Shown piece by piece: positions 1 through 31,700 of a DNA stretch of 64,000 nt. Source of the stretch: Eledone cirrhosa (taxonomy: Eukaryota); assembly GCA_964016885.1 (NCBI GenBank), contig OZ024740.1, positions 77,004,001 to 77,068,000 on the forward strand, in the 5' to 3' direction. The notes beneath the pieces were generated by a model. The model was given only the letters and a program-made list of their open reading frames with translations. It did not search any database and was not told where the DNA came from. The position numbers and the translations under genes were made by a program. The stretch's first letter is position 1; every line of letters starts with the position of its first letter.

Positions 1-13
1 AGTTATATAGATA

Positions 14-399
14 TCTTTCTTTATTTGCCACAGGGGCGTACAAAAATGGGACATTACAATACGTGACGGCGGGGGTTTTACATGATAAATAATAATAAAC
101 GATATAAAAATAAAACAATTGAAATCCTCATTAGGTTGGGTAACGTTACTGCGGGGTTGTTTTACACCCTGTGGATAGAACATCCCTCAACACCAGGAAC
201 ACGTTTTGTAGGTGTTCCGGTCTTCCTTCTGTTTATCTTCCTCAACCTACAGGTTTATATACAGAGAAGGCCCATTCATCCGGGCCATTTTCGCCACATT
301 CACCCACTTTTCAGCGAATTTACTGGGGTGTAGCACCTCTCTCTCCACTCTTACCTTCCTTCTGAAGTGGTACTTAAAGAAGGGGATGAGTTGTTGTCC
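14..399 (-). mobile_element. 5'-truncated Tx1 copy A (ORF2 C-terminus + 3' UTR)
   Basis: Encodes FFKYHFRRKVRVEREVLHPSKFAEKWVNVAKMAR, homologous to 1582-1710. The 3' end has AATAAAGAAA followed by TATCTAT. The 5' break abuts GATAGATGGATAGATA at 400-415. Confidence 0.88.
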
Positions 400-415
400 G
401 ATAGATGGATAGATA

Positions 416-491
416 AATTTATTTATTATCCACAAGGGCACAAAAGAAGGGGACAAATACAAATGGGGAGTTTACATGCAGGTATATGAAA
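416..491 (-). mobile_element. Very short Tx1 3'-UTR copy B
   Basis: cacaagggcacaaaagaaggggacaaatacaaatggggagtttaca is near-identical to the 3' end of copy C. Bounded by GATA repeats at 400-415 and 492-499. Confidence 0.8.
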
Positions 492-499
492 GATAGATA

Positions 500-1125
500 A
501 ATTTCTTTATTAGGCACAAGGGCACAAAAGAAGGGGACAAATACAAATGGGGAGTTTACATACAGGTATATGAAAATAAAACTATTAATAAAATAACAAA
601 TAACAATTCATATCCCCAATAGGGGGGAGGTGTTACACAGGGGTTGTAGACACCCCGAAAAAATGTACAACCCTCATCTTCAGGAGCACCAAGAGCGAGT
701 ACTCCCTTTCTCTCTTCCTCTTTTTCCTCAACCTACAGTCTTATATAGATAGAAGGCCCAAACACTCGGGCCATCTTTGCCACATTCACCCACCTTTTAT
801 AAAATTTGCTGGGGTACAGCACCTCTCTCTCTCCATCCTGATTCTTCTTCCAAAATGATATTTGAAAAAACGAATCAGTTGCTCGCCGGAGAGAGGGGTG
901 TCTGACCTCAGCCCTTTTAACCTCGTCCACCATATAACCTCTTTCACCATAGCCATAACACATAGGAAAACCGCCTCTCCCTCGTTTTTCAAGGAGGGTG
1001 GCGGTTTGATCATGACAATGGACTCGATGGTCAACTGTCCCACCCGCGACAATAGTCGTTCTACATAGCCCCACAGGTCGGTAACGCCCGGGCAGTATAC
1101 AAATGCATGCGTGGCGGTTTCCTCG
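500..1125 (-). mobile_element. 5'-truncated Tx1 copy C
   Basis: Colinear with 1341-1977 (KNEGEAVFLCVMAMVKEVIWWTRLKGL). Breaks inside the CCHC motif at GATAGATAGATA 1127-1138. Confidence 0.9.
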
Positions 1126-1138
1126 AGATAGATAGATA

Positions 1139-1328
1139 TGTTTCTTTATTAGCCACAGGGGCACAAAAGAAGGGGACAAATACAAAGGGGGAAGTTTACA
1201 TACAATAAAAACGTGTAAAATATTATCAAAAATGTAATTTAAAAATTAGTCGATTTTCCCCAATAGGGGGAGACATTTCATATGGGTAACACATACCCCC
1301 GAAATAAAATGTGCAACCCTCATCTCCA
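1139..1328 (-). mobile_element. 5'-truncated Tx1 copy D (3' UTR only)
   Basis: Same 3' UTR motifs (ttctttattagccacagggg, cccaatagggg, tgtgcaaccctcatct). Bounded by GATAGATAGATA on both sides. Confidence 0.85.
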
Positions 1329-1581
1329 GATAGATAGATAACTTTCTATTTATTTGCCACCAGGACATCAAATATTGGGACAAATACAAGAGGGGGAGTT
1401 TACATACATTTCAAGGGACGTGTAAAAACATATAACAAATCAAATTCAACAATCGAAGTCCTCAATAGGGAGGGGGCGTTGACGTGGGTCGCACACACCC
1501 CCGAAATAATGTGCAACCCTCCTCCCCCGAAGCACAAAGAGCGGGTGCTCCCTTCCTCTCCTCCTTCCTCTCCTCTCTCAC

Positions 1582-4500
1582 CTACAGGCTGATATAGAGA
1601 GAAGGCCCATTCACTCGGGCCATTCGCGCCACTTTCACCCACCTTTCATAAAACTTGCTGGGGTAGAGCACCTCTCTCTCCATTCTGATCCTTCTTCTAA
1701 AATGGTACTTGAAAAAAAGGACCAGTTGTTGGCCGGAGAGAAAAGTGTCTGACCTCAGCCCTTCCAACCTCGTCCACCATACAACCTCTTTCGCCATAGC
1801 TATCACACAGAGGAAAACCGCCTCTCCTTCGTTTTTGAATGGGGAGGCGGTTTGATCGTGACAATGTACTCGGTGGTCAACCGGATTGGTCCCACCCGCA
1901 ATAGTAGTCATTCCATATAGCCCCACAGGTCAGCAACGCCAGGGCAGTGTACGAATGCGTGCGCGACGGTTTCCTCGTCACGCACGCATCTTGGACAGAT
2001 CTTCTTCGAGGGGTCCCTACCCGGGCGCCCATGTCTGTAGAGCTTGTCCCAAATGGGTATAGCTTCTCGGTAGCACTGCTAAGCCAGGGACTTTTGGAAG
2101 TTGTTCATCGGTCCCGGGACAAACGTCCTACCGAACAGACTGGCCAGCTTGTCTTCCTCCATGCCCAGAGCCTCTCCGAGAGCGTCGTCACACTTGCTGC
2201 GCACCAACCCTCTATAGAATGTTGAGGTTGAGTCTCCATTGATTGCCGGATCCGCTTGCCAGAGGGCCGTGAGCGCCTGGGCACATTCAATGTGCCAGTC
2301 GCCCACTTTTCTCGGTCTTTGCTTGACCTAGGATTGCAGCTCTGTGAGTGAGACGAGTCTCGGAAAGGCTCGCCTCACAAAAGGGGCCCACACCGGCTGA
2401 CCGGTGAGGAATACCTGGAGGTGCCGTAGCGTTAATGCGTGTCTACGCATCGTCAGCCACGACATCCCCAGCCCTCCGTTTGAAGGGGGTTGACTGCAGA
2501 TGGATTTTCTCACCAAAGGGGCCCGCTTCTTCCAAAGAAATCGGAAGAGCGCGCGCTCCATTTTGGCGAGTGTTTTCGCTGGGCAAGGCACGACAGTCAA
2601 GCGGTAGTAGATGACGGACGCTATATAAGTGTGCGCCACCTCCGCTCGACCTTTCGGGCGAGTGCAAACACCCTGCCCGTTACCTGGTCCCAGTTTTTCT
2701 CCACCTGGAGGTCCGTTCCGAACCAGACCCCGAGGGGCTTCAGCGGTCCCTCCGCCCAGCGTTCGACGAGGGCATCGGTTTGCCTCTCCACGATCCGAGT
2801 TGCAAACCGACGGACTTGTCCCGGTTCAGCTGGGCTCCTGTAAACCTTTCGTACTCCTCGAGTAAGGTGCCGATCTGCCCGATTTCCGAGGCGCACGACA
2901 CCATTACTGTCACGTCATCGGCGTAGGCCGACACTGCTTTCCGCAATCCCGGTTCCAAGGGGATTCCCTGAAACAGCTCCCACTCCCGTAGTAGTGGCTC
3001 GAGAGCCAGGACATACAGAATGGAGGAGAGAGGGCATCTGTGTCGGATGGATCGCGCGATTTGGAACGGCTCCGAGAGGTAGCCGTTCACCTTGACTCTC
3101 GAGCAGGTGTTGCTGCTGTGCATTGCAGCAATCCAGCCCCTGAAAACGGGTCCGAAGCCTGCCGCCGCGAGCACCGCATCCAGGTACCGATGGTCGACCC
3201 TATCGAACGCCTTAGATTGATCCAAGTTGATAAGGGCCCCACCAAAGTTGGGTTCGTTCCCTACCCTCTCTACGATATATCGCATGAGGTGGAGGTTGTC
3301 GTGTATGGACCTGGACGGGATTGCGCATGTCTGCGCTTCTCCCACCAGGTTCCCGACGACAAGCGCCAACCTCTTCGCTAACACCTTGGCCAAAATCTTT
3401 AACTCTGTGTTTAGCAGAGTTATGGGCCTGAAGTTATCTATGTCATCCCCCTTTCAGCGGCTGAAATCGGCCTTTCGCAGGAGTTCTCCTCCCCGTCCGA
3501 GAGCCGCGGCAGACCGTCGAGGTATGGACCGAAATCCATGGCCTCACCCGGCCCGCTGCCCCTCCCGAACAGTCGTGCAAGCGCCGTTGAAAGGCCGCGC
3601 ACATCCTCTCAGGTTCAAGGATCACGCGTCCATCCTGGTCCTTCAAAGATCGAATCGTGGTCTTGTTTCCAATTTTTGCCGCTGTCACTCGGCCCCAGCT
3701 AACAGCTTTGGCTCCCTCGTTACCCAGAGCACGTATTTTACTCTTGACAACACAGCCCTCGTGCTTCGCATCAAAGAACTGGTCTAGGGTCGTTCTTGAC
3801 GCCAGCACGCCGGCCACGTGCCCCTCCTAGTCGTCTCTTCTACTCTATCTATCAATTCCCTTTCAGTTCTATTCCTATCTGATGCTAATTCCTGATTAAA
3901 ACCTATCGATTCTATTCTAATCTCTCTCTTGAGAGAGCCCCACCACCTGCTGTTGACAATTGCCCTCGTCAACCGCTGCTTAACTAGAGTGCTAATCCGT
4001 TTACTGTAAGCTTTGTTTGTCGTTAAGGACAAGTTTAGCTTTCAGTAGCCGGGTCCTTGTCTATGGGTTCTATCAAGGTTGACCACTCCGGTCACCAACT
4101 TGTGATCCGAATAGTCAAACATGAACATTCGTGGACAGCTTAATATGTCCCTATCCTTATTTCTAACTAGGAACCTATCTAGGTACGACCTAGATGTTCC
4201 GCTGAGATTAGTCCACGTCCACAGTGACACCGTCGGAAAATCTATTCGATATCTATCGGCCAGATCAAATCGGCCGATTAACCGTTTGCGCTGTTACACC
4301 CCCCTCTATCGGGACATGCCCCTACATAGTCCCAATGTGCATCCAGGATACCATTCCAGCCCCCCACTAAAAGCAAGAAGCGAGACGTCCCCAGAAAAGT
4401 CTCTAGGCGTTGGAAGAAGTCCGGTCGCGGTGTCCCAGATGGGGCATACGCTGCCACCAGCCTGAAGGCTCCACCTTCACCACTGCCTACGTCTAGAATC

Positions 4501-4780
4501 ACCAGTCAACCCTCCGGGTCCAGGTGTACCTTCCGTGTTGCAAGGCCCAGGTGTTTTCACAGCAGAACGACCACCTCGTCCCCACCCCCCGGCTGACAGA
4601 GAGATGCATAGATCTCAAAGTCGTCGAAGATGGGGGCCAGTTGGTGCTCGCTGCTGATCCTGGACTCGCAAATAGCTATCACATCCATTCTGTGCGACCT
4701 GAGGTCATTTCAGAGTTTGCCCTGCTCCAGGACATCCCCAGGCCGCGCACATTTAAACATCCAACTGTTATAACAGCCAT
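1582..4780 (-). pseudogene. Tx1 ORF2 (AP endonuclease + reverse transcriptase + CCHC), disrupted by frameshifts, stops and an internal deletion
   Basis: ATG at 4780 reads MAVITVGCLNVRGL. EN motifs: AFRLVAAYAP, WTWTN..SRSYLDRFLV, YSDHKLV. RT motifs: NFRPITLLNTELKILAKVLAKRL, LDQSKAFDRVDH, CPLSSILYVLALEPL, AYADDVTV. C-terminal CPRCVRDEETVAHAFVHC at ~1945-1998. Stop at 1582. Confidence 0.93.
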
Positions 4781-6582
4781 GTTGGTGGTGAAGAGTTTAG
4801 AGTGGAGAAAAAGGAAAAGACACCTACCTGTCCTTCTCCTGGAGACCAGGCTGCACAATTTCCATGGGGTGTCGGCGGGGTTGTTTCGTAGGGTGGTGGT
4901 TTGAGATGTGGTGGGGACATTAGTGTGTTGGGGTGGGGGTGTTTGGTGGGGGAGGGGTGTCTGGGGTGGTGGTGGGGAAATATTTCAAGAGACGCGGGAA
5001 AGTTCTGTTTGAGCATTTCGTAGGTGTCCCTTGTGACCCTAATCATTTTTAAATGCGCTTTAGTCGCCGCGGGTCTTTGTCTGTTATTTGCACAAGTGTT
5101 TTGTTGTTTGTGTTGATGTATGTATATTGTTTTTGTTGTGTTGTGTTTGTTTTTGTTTGTTGTTCTTGTGTGTGTTTGCGTTTTGTAGTATGTGTTATGT
5201 TTCCGGGAGGGGTGGGTTTTTTGTTTGTGATGTTTGTTCTGTTTGTGCTGGTGGTTGTGTGTTTGTTGCATTTTTGTTAATGTGGTGCCTTCTTTTCTTT
5301 CTTTTTACAGGTTGAAAGGGTTCTCCCTTGTCGTCACTGGGTGACGTCCGTGGTGTTGGGGAGGGGTGTATTTTGAAGTTTTGTTGTGGTTGCTTTTGTA
5401 TTTGTTTTAGGTGGGGAGGGGTTGGGTAGGACAGTGTCTTGTGTTGTTATTTGTTCGTGTTGTTGTTGTTGTTGTTGTGGTGGTGGTGGTGGTGGTGGTG
5501 GTTGTGCTGTTGTGTGTAGGGTCGGCAGAAGCGTCTTTGGTGGGGGGGATTTAAAAGGGGACAGGAAGCCCTCAGGTGACCACTTCTTGAACAGTGGTAG
5601 CATGAAGGCCGCCTGCCCTCAACAGAAATGTTTATGAAGGCGACTCCTTCCAAGGACACACGCTGCGGTATTCTTGCTATCCGTTCTGGTCTCATTTGGA
5701 CCAGAACTTCAAGGCTATTGCCGCCGAATACGCCCCCGGTGGATTCGCCTATCGAAAGGATTGTATCCACATCTTCTAAGAATCCCGTTAGCACCCACCA
5801 AATGCTCGCATTTGGCCTGATGCCCGAGATTCTTATATTTTGAGTTCTTTTTCCGCAAATATGTGGGGAAAAAGCTGTATGCTTTGGATACAATTGGCGA
5901 CACAGAATATTTCCATGCCGTCAATTCATCTTGCATTAAAACAGATATGCTTCCATACAGTTTCCCTTTCTGTATAAAAGCGATATCCTTCCAGGCACTA
6001 CTTAGGACCAGCTCAATTTCGCTTTGGGACAATTGAGCCGGTTTCCTAGGCGTGTTCGAAACTGTCCTAAAGGTTACAGTCCTGAGGATTGTGTCCTTTC
6101 TAATTTCTTCGGGGGAGGTAATTGTGAATTCCCCACCTTCCCCGAAATTTACACAATTCCTTGCTTCTTTCAGCAATTGCTTGGCATTCGAGATCTCCAG
6201 TGCCTTGTATGTCTGCGTTTCTTGGACCGCCTGTGCAAGGAGACTGCAGCTGTGGGTCCGTTTTCTTTCGTGTTGTTATCATTGTTGTTGTTGTTATTCG
6301 TGTTGGCTTGCTTTTTTCCTTTGTTGGTGTTGTCATTATTGCTGCTGTTGGTTGTGTTGTTATTGTCATTATTGCTGTTGTTGGTTGTGTTGTTATTGTC
6401 ATTGTTGCTCTTGTTTGTGTAATTGTTACTTTTTGGGTTTTCACCCATTTCCACAATTTTTTCTTTTGATTCCGTGGTGTCTTTTGCGGGAGTGAGGAGG
6501 GAAGGCTTACAGCGTTGTTCTGCTACCTTCTCTCTATCACTTTCCTTGGGGGCGTGGTATGCGTCGTATTAATGGCGTCCAT
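4768..6582 (-). pseudogene. Tx1 ORF1 (gag-like nucleic-acid-binding protein), frameshifted
   Basis: Pieced from ORFs 6170..6454, 5715..6176, 5447..5893, 5334..5603 and 4768..5271. CX2CX4HX4C knuckle CYHCSRSGHLRASC near 5560-5605, with Asn/Thr/Pro low-complexity tracts. Candidate ATG at 6582 is out of frame with the downstream piece, so the ends are approximate. Confidence 0.75.
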
Positions 6583-7004
6583 TGTCACTAAACGACTTTT
6601 TATCGACAACTTATAACTATTAAATTTCGCTCCAAAAAGGGGCGAAATTTATTTTACCCAACGTCTGCAGGCCCAGGCGAGGGGTTAAACACAACAAATA
6701 ACAAATTACTTAAACCAACCTACCGCTTCTCGTAATAAATTCCGACAAAATGCAGGAGCGAAACAAAAACACGTCTATCTTCTCCGAGATAGATAGATAG
6801 ATATGTATGAATATAGAAAAAGGTAAGAATGGAAGTAGCACTGCGGTGTATTTAAAGAATCTTTTTCTTCTTTAATCCGACAAAGTGATTATTGAAAACA
6901 AGAGAAAAACATGTTTTAAAAAAAAGTTTTTATAAAATATATTTTAAAAAATCGATGTTATCAATCTTAGCAAATATTAAAAGTTAAGAATTAAAAATTA
7001 AAAA

Positions 7005-8889: not shown

Positions 8890-9649
8890 ATATATATATA
8901 AATATTATATACATACATACACTCGTTTATACACACAGACATACTCATACACACACATACATACATACAGAGAGAGAGAATGAGAGATGTGTATCTATTA
9001 CATTTATTGCAAGCACACACACATACACACAGACTCACACACGCGTGTACACACACATATACACACTGAGAGACAAAGAGGGAAGAAATAAAGAGAAAGA
9101 AAATGGAAGAAAGATAGAGAAGCGGATAAAGAGAGGGGAGTGGTTATGGTTTCCGATGCTAGCAAAAAGTGCCCGTGATATTTACCAAATGGAGTTAGGT
9201 ATATTCTTACATGAGAGGCGTGGTTTCTTACTACCCCAGGGAAAGAAAAAAATTACACTATCTCAAGAACTTCAAAATATGTGAGAAAGTAGCTTAGAGG
9301 TAAAGGTAAAATAATTTCTTAGTGTGTTTCTTCTCTCATACATAATACCTTAATTGTTTTACAGACTATTGGTGTTGGTATTCCTTTGGAAAATATTCTG
9401 ACAATTCTGTTGCACACTTGTACCGCTACACAATATGTACTTTTCTAATTTTAAATCTGCATCTTTCGGTAAAAATAGATAGTGTCAAATTATTTAGTGT
9501 TAAGTTGCTCTTGTTGTTGTTGCTTTTATTTTTATTGTTGTTGTTGCTCTTATTTGTATTGTTGCTGCTGGTGCTGTTAGCAGTGTTGTTGGTGTTGTTG
9601 TTTAACCTTAAGTAAGGTCTAGGTCGAGAAAACTTTAGCAATGATCGGA

Positions 9650-13840: not shown

Positions 13841-14214
13841 GGATCTCCATGAGATAAGGCAGCAGTGACGACGTTACAGTGTAAGGTTTTGTAGAAATTC
13901 CATAAAAACTGTCTTAAAAGAAAAGGAAATCTAACCGAAATGTCTGCGAATCTAACTGGATACGAATGTGTAAAACATGTGTTATAACTATTTATATTTG
14001 CTGAACATACAGCATGTAGTTTGGAATGTAAATACGGAATGGTGATTTATATTTGTATTATTCTATTGTATTAATTTAACATCAAACCTGGTTATGTTGA
14101 CGGTATAAACACACCTGGTTGGGTGTTTAATTACTAAAACACGGCTTTTGTTTATGAACCAGATATATGCAATCATTTATTAGCGTAGTCTTCTGGAATA
14201 ATAATAAAAATAAT

Positions 14215-14427
14215 TGTTTCTACTTTCGACACAAGACCAGCAATTTGAAGAAGGGAAAGTCGATTAAATCTACCCCAGTGCATTACTGGCATATTATTTA
14301 TCAACCTCGAAAAGATGAAAGGCAAAGCTAACCTCGGCGGGATTTGAACTCAGAACGTAAAGGGGCATAACTCTATACCACAAAGTATGGTGTCCGACGC
14401 TCTACCGATGCTGCAAATCCACGCCCT
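14215..14427 (-). mobile_element. tRNA-head SINE, near full length
   Basis: Head agggcgtggatttgcagcatcggtagagcgtcggacacc, B-box gagttcaaatccc, conserved core and tail. Confidence 0.88.
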
Positions 14428-14433
14428 AATAAT

Positions 14434-14649
14434 GATTTCTACTATAGGCACAAGGCTAGCAACTTGAAGAAAGGGGAAAGCCGATTAATTTCAACATCAG
14501 TATATTACTGGTACTTTATTTTATCGACCCCGTAAGGATGAAAGGCAAAGTTAACCTCGCGGGATTTGAAATTAAAACGTAAAGGGCCATAACGCTACGC
14601 CACAAAACATGGTGTCCGACGCTCTACCGATGCTGCCAATCCACGGCCC

Positions 14650-14650
<1 letters not shown>
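14434..14650 (-). mobile_element. tRNA-head SINE, near full length
   Basis: Tandem to the previous copy. Head abuts (AAT)n(AAG)n at 14651-14735. Confidence 0.88.
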
Positions 14651-14710
<60 letters not shown>

Positions 14711-26949: not shown

Positions 26950-28735
26950 AGAGTTGCTATTGTTGCTAGTAGTGGTGGTGGTGGTGGTGGTTGTGATGGT
27001 GGCGGTGGTGGTAGGGTTGGTTGTGATGGTGGCGGTGGTGGTGGTGGTGGTGGTGGTGGTGGTAGTGGTGGTGGTGGTGGTGGTGGTGGCGGTGGTGGTG
27101 GTGGTAGTTGTGTGGTGGTGGTGGTGGTGGTGGTGGTAGAGGTAGTGGTGGTGGTGGTGGTGGTGGTGGTGGTGGTGGTAGAGGTAGTTGTGATGGTGGT
27201 GGTGGTGGTGGTAGTGGTGGTAGAGGTGGTTGTGATGGTGGTGGTGGTGGTGGTGGTGGTGGTGGTAGAGGTGGTTGTGATGGTGGTGGTGGTAGAGGTA
27301 GTTGTGGTGGTGGTAGAGGTAGTTGTGTGGTGGTGGTGGTGGTGGTGGTGGTGGTAGAGGTGGTTATGATGGTGGTGGTGTTGGTGGTGGTGGTGGTGGT
27401 GGAGGTAGAGGTGGGTGTGGTGGTGGTGGTAGAGGTGGTTGTGATGGTGGTGGTGGTGGTGGTGGTGGTGGTAGAGGTGGTTGTGATGGTGGTGGTGGTG
27501 GTGTTGGTGGTGGTGGTAGAGGTAGTTGTGGTGATGGTGGTTGTGGTGGTGGTGGTGGTGGTGGTGGTGGAGGTGGTTGTGATGGTGGCGGTGGTGGTGG
27601 TGGTGGTAGAGGTAGTTGTGGTGGTGGTGGTGGTGGTGGTGGTGGTGGTAGAGGTAGTTGTGGTGGTGGTGATGGTGGTGGTGGTGGTGGAGGTTGTGGT
27701 GGTGATGGTGGTGGTGGTGGTGGTAGTGGTGGTGGTAGAGGTGGTTGTGGTGGTGGTGGTGGTGGTGGTGGGAGGATTTGTGGTAGTGGTGGTGGTGATG
27801 GAGGTGGTGGTGGTGGTGGTGGTGGTGGTGGTGGTGGTGGTGGTGGTGATGGTGGTGGAGGTGGTGGTGGTGGTGGTGTTTGTGGTGGGAGGATTTGTGG
27901 TAGTGGTGGTGGTGATGGAGGTGGTGGTGGTGGTGGTGGTGGTGATGGTGGTGGTGGAGGTGGTGGTGGTTGTGGTGTTTGTGGTGGGAGGATTTGTGGT
28001 AGTGGTGGTGGTGATGGTGGTGGTGGAGGTGGTGGTGGTGGTGGTGGTTGTGATGGTGGAGGTGGTGGTGGTGATGGTGGTGGTGGTTGTGTGGTGGTGG
28101 TGGTGGTGGTTGGACTTGTGGTGGTGATGGTGGTGGTAGTGGTGGTCGTGGTCGTGGTAGTGGTCGTGGTGGTGGTGGTGGTTATGGTTGTGCTGGTGGT
28201 GGTATGGTTGGGCTGGTGGTGGTGATGGTGGTGGTGGTGGTTGTGGTGATAGTGGTGGTAGTAGTGGTGGTGGTGGTGGCGATGGTGTTTGTGGTGGGAG
28301 GAGTTGTGGTAGTGGTTGTGGTGGTGGTGATGGTTGTGATGGTGGAGGTGGTGGTGGTGGTGGTTGTGCTGGTGTTGATGGTGATGGTGGTTGTGGTGGT
28401 GGGGTAGTGGTGGTGGTGGTTGTGCTGGTGGTGGTGGTGGTGGTGGTTGTGATGGTGGTGGTGGTGGTTGTGGTGATGGTGGTGGTAGTGGTGGTGGTGG
28501 AGGTGATGGTGTTTGTGGTGGCAGGAGCTCTGGTATTGGTGGTGGTGCTGTTTGTGATGGTGGTAGTGGTGGTGGTTGGGGTGGTGGTGTTTGGGGTAGT
28601 GGTGCTGGTTGTGGTGCTGGTGGTGGTGGTGGTTCTGCTGGTGGTGGTGATGGTGATGGTAGTGTTGGTGATGATGGTGGTGGTGGTGTTGGTTATGATG
28701 GTGGTGTTGGTGTTGATGGTAGTGGTGGTGTTAGT
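26950..28735 (+). repeat. Degenerate (GGT)n trinucleotide array with recurrent sub-motifs
   Basis: GGT runs interrupted by ggtagaggtagttgt, ggttgtgatggt and gggaggatttgtggtagt (27770, 27887, 27986). Confidence 0.95.
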
Positions 28736-31700
28736 GGCGTTGGTGTTGGTGGTGGGGCTGGAGAGCTGTTGATATTGATGTTGGGGTTCTTAGCGATGGT
28801 GTTGGAGTTGGCGTTGGTGTTGTGGTGGGGCGGGAGTGTTGTTGATGTTGATGTTGGTGTTGTTAGCGATGGTATTGGAGATGGTGTTGGTGTTGGTGGT
28901 GGGGCTGGCGTGCTGTTGATGTTGATGTTGGTGTTGTTAGCGATGGTATTGGAGATGGTGTTGGTGTTGGTGGTGGGGCTGGAGTGCTGTTGATGTTGAT
29001 GTTGGTGTTGTTACCGATGGTATTGAAGTTGGTGTTGGTGTTGGTGGTGGGGCTGGAGTGCTGATGATGTTGATGTTGGTGTTATTAGCGATGGTATTGG
29101 AGTTGGCGTTGGTGTTGGTGGGCGTGGTGGAGTGCTGTTGATGTTGATGTTGGTGTTGTTAGCGATGGTATTGGAGTTGGTGTTGGTGTTGGTGGTTGGG
29201 CTGGAGTGCAGTTGCTGTTGATGTTGGTGTTGTTAGCGATGGTATTGGAGATGTTGTTGGTGTTGGTGGGCGTGGTGGAGTGCTGTTGATGTTGATGTTG
29301 GTGTTGTTAGCGATGGTATTGGAGTTGGTGTTGGTGTTGGTGTTGGGGCTGGAGTGCTGTTGATGTTGATGTTGGTGTTGTTAGCGATGGTATTGGAGTT
29401 GGTGTTGGTGTTGGTGGTAGGGCTGGAGTGCTGCTGATGTTGATGTTGGTGTTGTTAGCGATGGTATTGGTGTTGGTGTTGGTGGTGGGGCTGGAGTGCT
29501 GTTGATGTTGATGTTGGTGTTATTAGCGATGGTATTGGTGTTGGTGTTGGTGGTGGGGCTGGAGTGCTGTTGATGTTGATATTGGTGTTGTTAGCGATGG
29601 TATTGGAGTTGGTGTTGGTGTTTGTGGTTGGGCTGGAGTGCAGTTGCTGTTGATGTTGGTGTTGTTAGCGATGGTATTGGAGTTGGTGTTGGTGTTGGTG
29701 GTGGGGCTGGAGTGCTGTTGATGTTGATGTTGGTGTTGTTAGTGATGTTATTGGAGGTGGCGTTGGTGTTGGTGGTGGCGCTGGAGTGCTGTTGATGTTG
29801 ATGGTGTGTTGTTAGCGATGGTATTGGAGTTGACGTTGGTGTTGGTGTTGGTGGTGGGGCTGGAGTGCTGTTGATGTTGATGTTGGTGTTGTTAGCGATG
29901 GTATTGGAGTTGGCGTTGGTGGTGGGGCTGGAGTGCTGTTGATGTTGATGTTGGTGTTGTTAGCGATGGTATTGGAGTTGGTGTTGGGGTTGGTGGTGGG
30001 GCTGGAGTGTGGTCATGTTGATGTTGGTGTTGTTAGCGATGGTATTGGAATTGGTGTTGGTGTTGGTGGTGGGGCTGGAGTGCTGTTGATGTTGATGTTG
30101 GTGTTGTTAGCGATGGTATTGGAGTTGGTGTTGGTGTTGGTGGTGGGGCTGGAGTGCTGTTGCTGTTGATGTTGGCGTTGTTAGCGATGGTATTGGTGTT
30201 GGTGCTGGTGGTGGGGCTGGAGTGTTGTTGATGTTGATGTTGGTGTTGGTGTTGGTGGTGGGGCTGGAGTGCTGTTGATGTTGATGTTGGTGTTATTAGC
30301 GATGGTATTGGTGTTGGTGTTGGTGTTGGTGGTGAGGCTGGAGTGCTGTTGATGTTGATGTTGGTGTTGTTAGCGATTGTATTGGAGTTGGAGTTGCTGT
30401 TGATAGTGGGACTGGAGTGTTGTTGATGTTGACGTTGGTGTTGTTAACCATGGTATTGGAGTTGGTGTTGGTGATGGTGGTGGGGCTGGACTGCTGTTGA
30501 TGTTGATGTTGGTGTTGTTAGCGATGGTATTGGAGTTGGAGTTGGTGTTGGAGTTGGTGGTGTGGCTGGAGTGCTGTTGATGTCGATGTTGGTGTTGTTA
30601 GCGATGGTGTTGGAGTTGGCGTTGGTGTTGGTGGTGGGGCTAGAGTGTTGCTGACGTTGATGTTGGTGTTGTTAGCGATGGTATTGGAGTTGGTGTTGGT
30701 GATGGTGGTGGGGCTGGAATGCTGTTTATGTTGATGTTGGTGTTGTTAGCGATGGTATTGGAGTTGGCGTTGGTGTTGGTGTTGGTGGTGGGGCTGGAGT
30801 GCTGTTGATATTGATGTTGGTGTTGTTAGCGATGGTATTGGAGTTGGTGTTGGAGGTGGGGCTGGAGTGCTGTCGATGTTGATGTTGATTTTGTTAGCGG
30901 TGGTATTGGAGTTGGCGTTGGTGTTGGTGGTGGGGCTGGAGTGCTGTTGATGTTGATGTTGGTGTTGTTAGCGGTGGTATTGCAGTTGGTGTTGGTGTTG
31001 GTGGTGGGGCTGGAGTGCTGTTGATGTTGATGTTGGTTTTCTTAGCGATGGTATTGGAGTTGGTGTTGGTGTTGGTGGTGGGGCTGGAGTGCTGTTGATG
31101 TTGATGTTGGTGTTGTTAGCGATGGTGTTGGAGTTGGCGTCGGTGTTGGTGTTGGAGCTGGAGTGCTGTTGATGTTGATGTTGGTGTTGTTAGCGATGTC
31201 ATTGGAGGTGGCGTTGGTGTTGGTGGTGGGGCTGGAGTGTTGCTGATGTTGATGTTGGTGTTGTTAGCGATGGTATTGGAGTTGGCGTTGGTGTTGCTTG
31301 TGGGGCTGGAGTGCTGTTGATGTTAATGTTGGTGTTGTTAGCGATGGTATTGGAGTTGGCGTTGGTGTTGGTGGTGGGGCTGGAGTGCTGTTGATGTTGA
31401 TGTTGGTGTTGTTAGCGATGGTATTGGAGTTGGCGTTGGTGTTGGTGGTGGGGCTGGAGTGCTGTTGATGTTGATGTTGGTGTTGTTAGCGATGGTATTG
31501 GTGTTGGCTTTGGCGTTGGTGTTGGTGGTGTGGCTGGAGTGCTGTTGATGTTGATGTTGGTGTTGTTAGCGATGGTATTGGAGTTGGCGTTGGTGTTGGT
31601 GGTGGTGGTGGGGCTGGAGTGCTGTTGATGTTGATGTTGGTGTTGTTAGCGATGGTATTGGTGTTGGCGTTGGTGTTGGTGTTGGTGGTGGGGCTGGAGT

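Follow-up and report, generated by a model that had tools for sequence, protein, structure and literature searches.

Microsatellite-targeting LINEs and the (TATC)n family of Eledone cirrhosa

Several long interspersed nuclear elements (LINEs) that encode an apurinic/apyrimidinic endonuclease (AP endonuclease, APE) insert into microsatellites, and in the Tx1 clade these targets are (TC)n, (TTC)n and (TTCC)n or (TTTC)n (PMC4494074, PMC3812793; articles are cited here and below from parts of their text). How APE-type LINEs come to target microsatellites is described as poorly understood at the molecular level (PMC3812793). A LINE family of this kind occupies the left edge of a 64,000-nucleotide stretch of the Eledone cirrhosa genome (assembly GCA_964016885.1, contig OZ024740.1, positions 77,004,001 to 77,068,000, forward strand), hereafter the window, in which five minus-strand copies, A to E, lie end to end with GATA tracts between them. 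Like Kibi and Koshi (Tx1 elements of teleosts) and the crocodilian Tx1-1_Crp group, it is an APE-type LINE found in microsatellites, but their targets are TC, TTC and TTCC/TTTC repeats, whereas its target is (TATC)n and its host is an invertebrate. As judged from sequence, the family appears to work like Kibi and Koshi while being neither by target.

Other targeted LINEs differ further. Tx1L of Xenopus and Keno are sequence-specific members of the Tx1 clade whose endonuclease sets the site (PMC1950540, PMC4494074), but they target a DNA transposon or U2 genes rather than a microsatellite. SART1/TRAS1, Waldo and Mino are APE-type LINEs that insert in fixed phase and orientation in simple repeats (PMC7265360, PMC3812793), SART1 needing three repeats (PMC7265360), but they belong to the R1 clade.

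Insertion into (TATC)n tracts

Targeting was assessed at the 5' junctions of dispersed 5'-truncated copies from two samples. Sample 1, anchored on element sequence only (a 40-mer taken from the 3' untranslated region, UTR), consists of 90 of the first 100 listed matches, leaving out copy D, its neighbour and the last 8; 19 are full length, 69 are truncated and two of unclear type (L103, L115) were dropped. Sample 2, anchored on reverse transcriptase (RT) identity, consists of 40 of the best 150 RT matches with a shortened frame, taken in list order while skipping 6 already sampled and one neighbour, and holds 12 full-length and 28 truncated copies. A junction was counted when it carried (TATC)n of at least 8 nt, and the same rule was applied to 4000 random genomic positions as background. 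The first automatic count in sample 1 gave 47 of 71 junctions with TATC, and the uniform rule applied after inspection gave 52 of 69; sample 2 gave 21 of 28, or 19 under a stricter rule. Over both samples, (TATC)n was found at the 5' junction in 73 of the 97 dispersed truncated copies; the rule is satisfied at 6 of 4000 random positions. The first-pass annotation had proposed site-specific insertion into this repeat and had pointed to random 5' flanks in most dispersed copies as the pattern that would speak for a self-encoded tail; the flanks found are mostly repeat, which together with duplications running from repeat into unique flank upholds the proposal. Site-specific insertion into (TATC)n is considered highly probable.

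Twenty-five of the 73 positive junctions lie directly behind an older copy and 48 are unstacked. The opposite orientation occurs at one of 71 5' junctions in sample 1. Runs of (TA)n are about 50 times commoner than (TATC)n (527 vs 11 in 200 kb of background) yet are seldom used, and (TC)n occurs in few flanks only (L018, L019, L104). Microsatellite-specific Tx1 elements are recognised by more than 20% of flanks being one repeat type (PMC4494074); here a single type accounts for 73 of 97 truncated 5' flanks and 78 of 90 3' flanks. Across the 3.0-Gb genome, the 3' end motif of the family is followed by (TATC)3 in 11,556 matches and by the opposite orientation, (GATA)3, in 105, and a 40-mer from the 3' end of copy D has 4,799 exact matches. 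The 5' flank of L169 is (GATA)n in opposite orientation, itself preceded by (TATC)n, and thus forms an inverted-repeat tract. Among the listed contigs of public runs, in which other copies swamp the tables, no joint bridging the insertion was found for L240 or L155.

3' ends and target-site duplications

In the stack, copies end in AATAAA, 6-8 nt ending in AAANN, and then TATC, as first described for this DNA, and poly(A) is found at 0 of 90 3' ends in sample 1, whereas SART1 ends in and requires poly(A). TATC of at least 8 nt follows the 3' end in 78 of 90 sample-1 copies and in 23 of 29 copies of the type of E. Duplications can be read where the insertion lies close to the end of a tract. 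Sixteen candidates in sample 1 include 10 convincing duplications that enter unique flank; in sample 2 the figure is 2 of 3, and a background locus adds one. They are 11-21 bp long (0-4 nt being uncertain through microhomology), and all start with TAT directly after AAANN. The candidates at L110, L112, L147, L149, L153, L164 and L233 were set aside as too periodic or as derived from a shared leader.

Because the duplications start with TAT and extend into unique flank, the microsatellite repeat is the insertion target and not a tail. At three atypical sites (L125, L155, L180) the duplicated sequence is not TATC and AAANN adjoins the duplication with no repeat added, so the landing pad is renewed by target-site duplication and not by an encoded tail. 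Of the earlier idea of a self-renewing landing pad, the renewal stands but the RNA tail as its source does not. RTE/Bov-B LINEs likewise have a short tandem repeat after the 3' end and no poly(A), but their repeat is element-encoded and the target is rarely similar (PMC13295347), whereas that of the present family is mostly target-derived. L180, an off-target insertion with a 15-bp duplication, comes from a background stretch.

The stack at the left edge of the window

The layout of the stack is as follows, in window coordinates.

1..14, minus strand: end of the interrupted (TATC)n tract 3' of copy A (from sequence; continues left of the window)
15..399, minus strand: copy A, 5'-truncated, 385 nt, end of open reading frame 2 (ORF2) plus 3' UTR; 76-78% like C, D and E
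400..415, minus strand: (TATC)n spacer between B and A, one mismatch (from sequence)
416..491, minus strand: copy B, 76 nt, 3' UTR; 72/76 like C; 84-nt period
492..499, minus strand: (TATC)2 spacer between C and B (tract scan)
500..1126, minus strand: copy C, 5'-truncated, 627 nt; 83% like E
1127..1138, minus strand: (TATC)3 spacer between D and C (tract scan)
1139..1328, minus strand: copy D, 190 nt (pairwise comparison; match count of its 3'-end 40-mer)
1329..1340, minus strand: (TATC)3 spacer between E and D (tract scan)
1341..6787, minus strand: copy E, 5.45 kb and nearly full length, inactivated; its ORF2 about 85% like that of the young intact subfamily, its 5' UTR different
1582..4780, minus strand: broken ORF2 of E with AP endonuclease, RT and C-terminal zinc region (RVT_1 E 2.4e-23; tblastn pieces in several frames)
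~2806-3441, minus strand: RT core of the ORF2 of E, within 1582..4780
4800..6582, minus strand: broken ORF1 of E, limits approximate (translation)
~5561-5602, minus strand: CX2CX4HX4C knuckle in the ORF1 of E (translation)
6770..6776, minus strand: AGACGTG, a motif like a downstream promoter element (DPE), 11 nt inside the 5' end of E (from sequence; putative function, DPE position from PMC4748587)
6788..6803, minus strand: (TATC)4 tract 5' of copy E, followed by unique flank (from sequence)

The five same-strand copies and their coordinates agree with the first-pass annotation, which had counted a stack five deep. Immediately left of the window, locus L091 (C1, ~77002535-77003913) contains, besides a terminal TATC tract, two further copies of ~360 and ~990 nt, which makes the stack seven copies deep. 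Every junction had been described as a GATA repeat, which is exact for five: a plus-strand scan finds perfect GATA-phase tracts of at least 8 nt at 408-415, 491-499, 1126-1138, 1328-1340 and 6787-6803, and only two others in the window (745-753, 9475-9482), so that five of its seven such tracts are copy junctions. The first of these tracts is the perfect part of the spacer at 400-415, which as a whole has the mismatch, and the junction at 7-14 (ATAGATAT) is imperfect inside the window and runs on past its edge into a long interrupted tract.

Pairwise identity among A, C, D and E is 76-86% and their truncation points differ, in line with the independent insertions proposed earlier. Copy B alone may depart from this picture. 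Because it is 95% like C (72/76; 90% like D), it could be a local duplication of the end of C, or else an independent insertion. Copy E is inactive, with frameshifts, stops and about 196 bp missing relative to an intact copy.

Full-length 5' ends and the predicted start of transcription

A TATC tract lies upstream of the 5' end in 30 of 30 copies of the type of E, scored by eye in the best 30 of the 40 listed, the copy in the window included. These flanks do not count here as proof of targeting, since full-length elements bring part of the repeat upstream of them along, which makes full-length 5' junctions weak evidence and removes the intact 5' end of copy E from the independent support for which it had been taken. 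In the young subfamily, a shared TC-run leader lies within the repeat at 19 of 28 full-length starts, versus a TC run at 2 of 97 truncated junctions, the definitions of a TC run differing slightly between the two counts. Tracts shorter than 22 nt flank none of 15 unstacked full-length copies versus 15 of 48 unstacked truncated ones (Fisher p 0.013). The repeat carried by full-length elements suggests that transcription starts inside the target tract. The unique sequence begins with AG(A/T)CGTG, at its first base in the young type and 11 nt inside in the type of E. In insect LINEs, among them SART1 and TRAS1, the DPE lies at +28 to +32 (PMC4748587); on that spacing, the motif here would put the predicted start site within the upstream tract.

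There are nine distinct types of 5' end behind TATC tracts; five of the seven minor types were checked, and all five have ORF1-like matches downstream. LINEs processed by a ribozyme (R2/L1Tc type) carry a hepatitis delta virus (HDV)-like ribozyme at the 5' end; none was found here in an Rfam scan of 4 loci (0 of 20 matches at gathering score). Several 5'-UTR types (L113, L071, L016, L024) have a splice-donor-like GGTAAG motif about 30-45 nt in. The start of the type of E, at window 6774-6795 and at L034, is predicted to be able to fold onto the upstream repeat (TCTATCT ... AGATAGA), and at L034 the inverted GATA block at this start is expanded.

Proposed mechanism

The one-orientation location in the repeat, the duplications starting with TAT, the lack of poly(A), the near-identical intact copies and the stacking are direct observations, and the following scheme accommodates them. 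The AP endonuclease would nick the GATA (bottom) strand at 5'-GATA^GATA-3', a specificity for the GATA repeat that is attributed to the enzyme from sequence. The freed 3'-OH end (...ATA) would pair with read-through UAUC just past AAUAAA and prime reverse transcription, and through this pairing the cDNA would begin exactly after AAANN with no tail added. A second nick 11-21 bp off would duplicate part of the tract and leave usable target on both sides of each insertion, which would allow copies to stack. Full-length transcription would start about 25-30 nt upstream of the DPE-like motif, inside the 5' tract, so that the element would be copied together with a short leader of repeat. We put the probability of this whole reading, a two-ORF APE-type LINE, likely of the Tx1 clade, that inserts one way in (TATC)n with 11-21 bp duplications, at roughly three in four.

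A more ambitious version, which is tentative and somewhat doubtful, is that of an active GATA-specific lineage for which the target is part of its own transcription unit: the DPE would fire RNA polymerase II in the upstream (TATC)n, and read-through would supply the 3' priming repeat. With both RNA ends borrowed from the microsatellite, mainly on-target copies could breed. If so, targeting would reinforce itself in a loop preserved in at least nine 5'-UTR types, and the family would be a naturally occurring writer of GATA repeats that does not depend on poly(A).

Several observations weigh against the proposed scheme. Twenty-four of the 97 truncated junctions fail the 5' rule, some of them as degenerate repeats, deletions or fusions, and nine sample-1 junctions in chimeric or mis-chained copies were placed by hand before the uniform count. 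Several insertions, e.g. L106, L136, L148, L222, L241 and L245, lie at plain non-repeat sites, for which reason (TATC)n targeting is a strong preference and no absolute specificity. At the 3' end, 12 of 90 and 6 of 29 copies of the two sets given above lack 8 nt of TATC. At L234 and L030 a (CA)n or (TA)n tract follows a single TATC unit, so that the RNA is able to supply one unit, contrary to a strictly tail-less RNA. The nick phase is deduced from the duplications and, within pure repeat, could be off by any whole number of units. Long flanking tracts may have lengthened after insertion, so that present length need not equal the minimal target, and of the nine 5'-end types only some have a clear DPE-like motif.

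Alternative explanations

It is conceivable, though unlikely, that RNA-DNA pairing is the main source of the specificity, with a loose endonuclease or existing nicks and only ...GATA 3' ends annealing to UAUC and priming. All clear duplications start with TAT, at atypical sites too, as this explanation would have it; (TC)n and (TA)n, repeats able to pair in part with UAUC, are frequent among off-target 3' flanks; and the loop between the conserved T and S of the endonuclease has 9 residues by our own count versus 11 in the site-specific Tx1L and TRAS1 (PMC1950540). However, (TA)n tracts are far commoner and would allow the same 3-nt pairing (ATA), yet they are rarely used, and at L125 the cut lies directly after TATCTATC even though the side that was duplicated is not TATC, as expected if flanking DNA is recognised. 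By analogy with relatives in which the endonuclease sets the site, Tx1L (PMC1950540) and the SART1/TRAS1 swap (PMC7265360), the enzyme would be the likelier determinant here as well.

A self-encoded 3' tail as in RTE/Bov-B, combined with random insertion and 5' repeats that come from landing in the tails of older copies, would account for TATC at 78 of 90 3' ends, for those 25 among the 73 positive 5' junctions that lie behind an older copy and for the repeat carried by full-length copies. It does not account for the 48 unstacked truncated copies with repeat on the 5' side, for duplications that pass from repeat into unique flank, or for the lack of an added tail at L125, L155 and L180; Bov-B copies, moreover, are rarely flanked by tail-like targets (PMC13295347). 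This explanation is largely refuted and scarcely credible. It is highly improbable that tandem duplication or unequal exchange produced the stack, or that random insertions were passively retained in harmless repeats. Duplication is in keeping with the adjacent B and C, 95% alike, and with near-identical full-length neighbours about 5.9 kb apart (L127/L128), but not with A, C, D and E, which are 76-86% alike and differently truncated. Retention cannot yield a 110-fold strand bias or a fixed phase, and the youngest copies (>99% identity) have the same pattern (21 of 28).

Coding capacity, abundance and age

Three natural copies (L127, L128, L167) are intact, with an ORF1 of 643 and an ORF2 of 1150 codons, stop to stop, and an intact copy matches Exo_endo_phos (2e-12), RVT_1 (6e-27) and zf-RVT (4e-06) in Pfam. 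An N-terminal AP endonuclease, an RT and a C-terminal zinc region make this an APE-type non-long-terminal-repeat retrotransposon of the L1 group. Catalytic motifs of the AP endonuclease are visible in the sequence. Since about 76 of the best 150 RT matches (a hand count) keep the full 1150-aa ORF2 frame at 99-100% identity, one subfamily is very young.

The 97 truncated copies, the 11-21 bp duplications and a 5' inversion in L223 are marks of target-primed reverse transcription. Human LINE-1 has similar duplication lengths, 5' truncations and 5' inversion, but differs in its poly(A) tail, loose TT/AAAA target, ORF2 of 1275 aa (1145 aa in the family) and ORF1 without a zinc knuckle. The inversion in L223 (C4:352738644-352744944), like that in L115, is of the L1 twin-priming type, and its inverted end adjoins a TATC tract.

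In five chimeric copies (L165, L141, L105, L135, L103) the ORF2 and 3' end are young, whereas the ORF1 and 5' UTR are of another kind (~70-77% alike), which suggests swapping of the 5' UTR or ORF1 between subfamilies. Head-to-tail neighbours about 5.9 kb apart with repeat alone between them (L127/L128, L109/L110, L100/L101, L161/L162) would fit both sequential insertion and read-through copying. Open ORF2 frames of two other subfamilies occur at L180 (C1:410000001-410010000) and L117, at 85% and 80% identity, and the ORF2 clusters P0153, P0004 and P0014 with their relatives are ~40% identical (50-55% in the RT), some having hundreds of members.

Clade placement and described relatives

The best solved relative is human L1 ORF2p (179 bits vs 82 for R2), and the closest named RT, at 66%, is from Argonauta hians. 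In a quick tree built from 24 RTs, the family groups with BAC82621, BAD04856 and fish elements that have a ZCCHC3-type ORF1 (Shimodaira-Hasegawa-like approximate likelihood-ratio test 94, not starred); over ORF2 it is only about 25-27% identical to the fish references. Joining the family to an L1-clade fish RT, which scores 530 bits to human L1, is rejected (approximately unbiased test, p-AU 0.024, with one L1 reference and one long outgroup), and a root between the fish references and the family lineage is not rejected (p-AU 0.36). We take BAC82621 and BAD04856 to be Tx1-clade deposits of Kojima and Fujiwara 2004, which look-ups did not confirm. The ORF1 has a CX2CX4HX4C knuckle (Pfam zf-CCHC at only E 0.24), Transposase_22 was not found in it with Pfam, and in the Atlas it resembles CCHC proteins (0.92) and, as a lead only, a ZCCHC3-RBD cluster (0.89). 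Described ORF1 types include type I, with RRM and CCHC knuckle, as opposed to Transposase_22 (PMC5203782). The family probably belongs to the Tx1 clade, as had been proposed; the RT grouping and the rejected L1-clade join speak for the assignment and fall short of proof, the Tx1 label of the references being itself presumed.

Thirteen recently active L1-Tx1 families with 421 insertions are reported from Octopus vulgaris (PMC13282606) and may include relatives of the GATA family; no insertion preference is described, and the word 'target' is missing, in the main text of that article. The literature on targeted LINEs, in the portions compared and with Repbase, Dfam and Kojima and Fujiwara 2004 outside the comparison, yielded no GATA/TATC-specific LINE. 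The text of PMC4494074, apart from its Fig. 3 and supplements, has no match to the words GATA or TATC (its targets are TC, TTC, TTCC/TTTC, U2 and transposons). The repeat targets are ACAY, AC, TC, TTC and TAA in PMC3812793 and TG in PMC4640811, and no GATA/TATC-specific LINE appears in the parts compared of PMC5753468, PMC5203782, PMC8869645, PMC9115989, PMC4889948 and PMC2684134, nor in those of PMC13282606, PMC1950540, PMC13295347, PMC4748587 and PMC7265360. A Repbase entry that records a GATA target is quite possible, and on balance it seems somewhat probable that this target is undescribed so far.

Significance

The targeting is well supported as real, genome-wide and recent. It follows a known strategy, with a probably new target and with a twist at the 5' end that can be tested. 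Tx1-type targeting gains a tetranucleotide target and an invertebrate host. With natural junctions in the thousands, off-target events, duplications that carry information and a large number of near-identical intact copies, the family makes the roles of endonuclease and RNA pairing directly testable. It also shapes the GATA repeats of its host, its ends making up roughly a sixth of 53,610 one-phase tract starts, an estimate that assumes that 78 of 100 listed ends fit that phase pattern, and it may be a possible starting point for RNA-templated insertion at GATA repeats.

Other features of the window

A 35-kb array of a 74-bp GT-rich unit (~469 copies, 81% matches) fills positions 28735-64000 and is preceded at 26972-28755 by a (GTG)n-like tract with minus-strand open frames of up to 607 aa. 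Another interspersed repeat, present at 14209-14656 as two 222-bp units head to tail and followed by (TAA)n, resembles RTE/SINE (short interspersed nuclear element) 3' ends.

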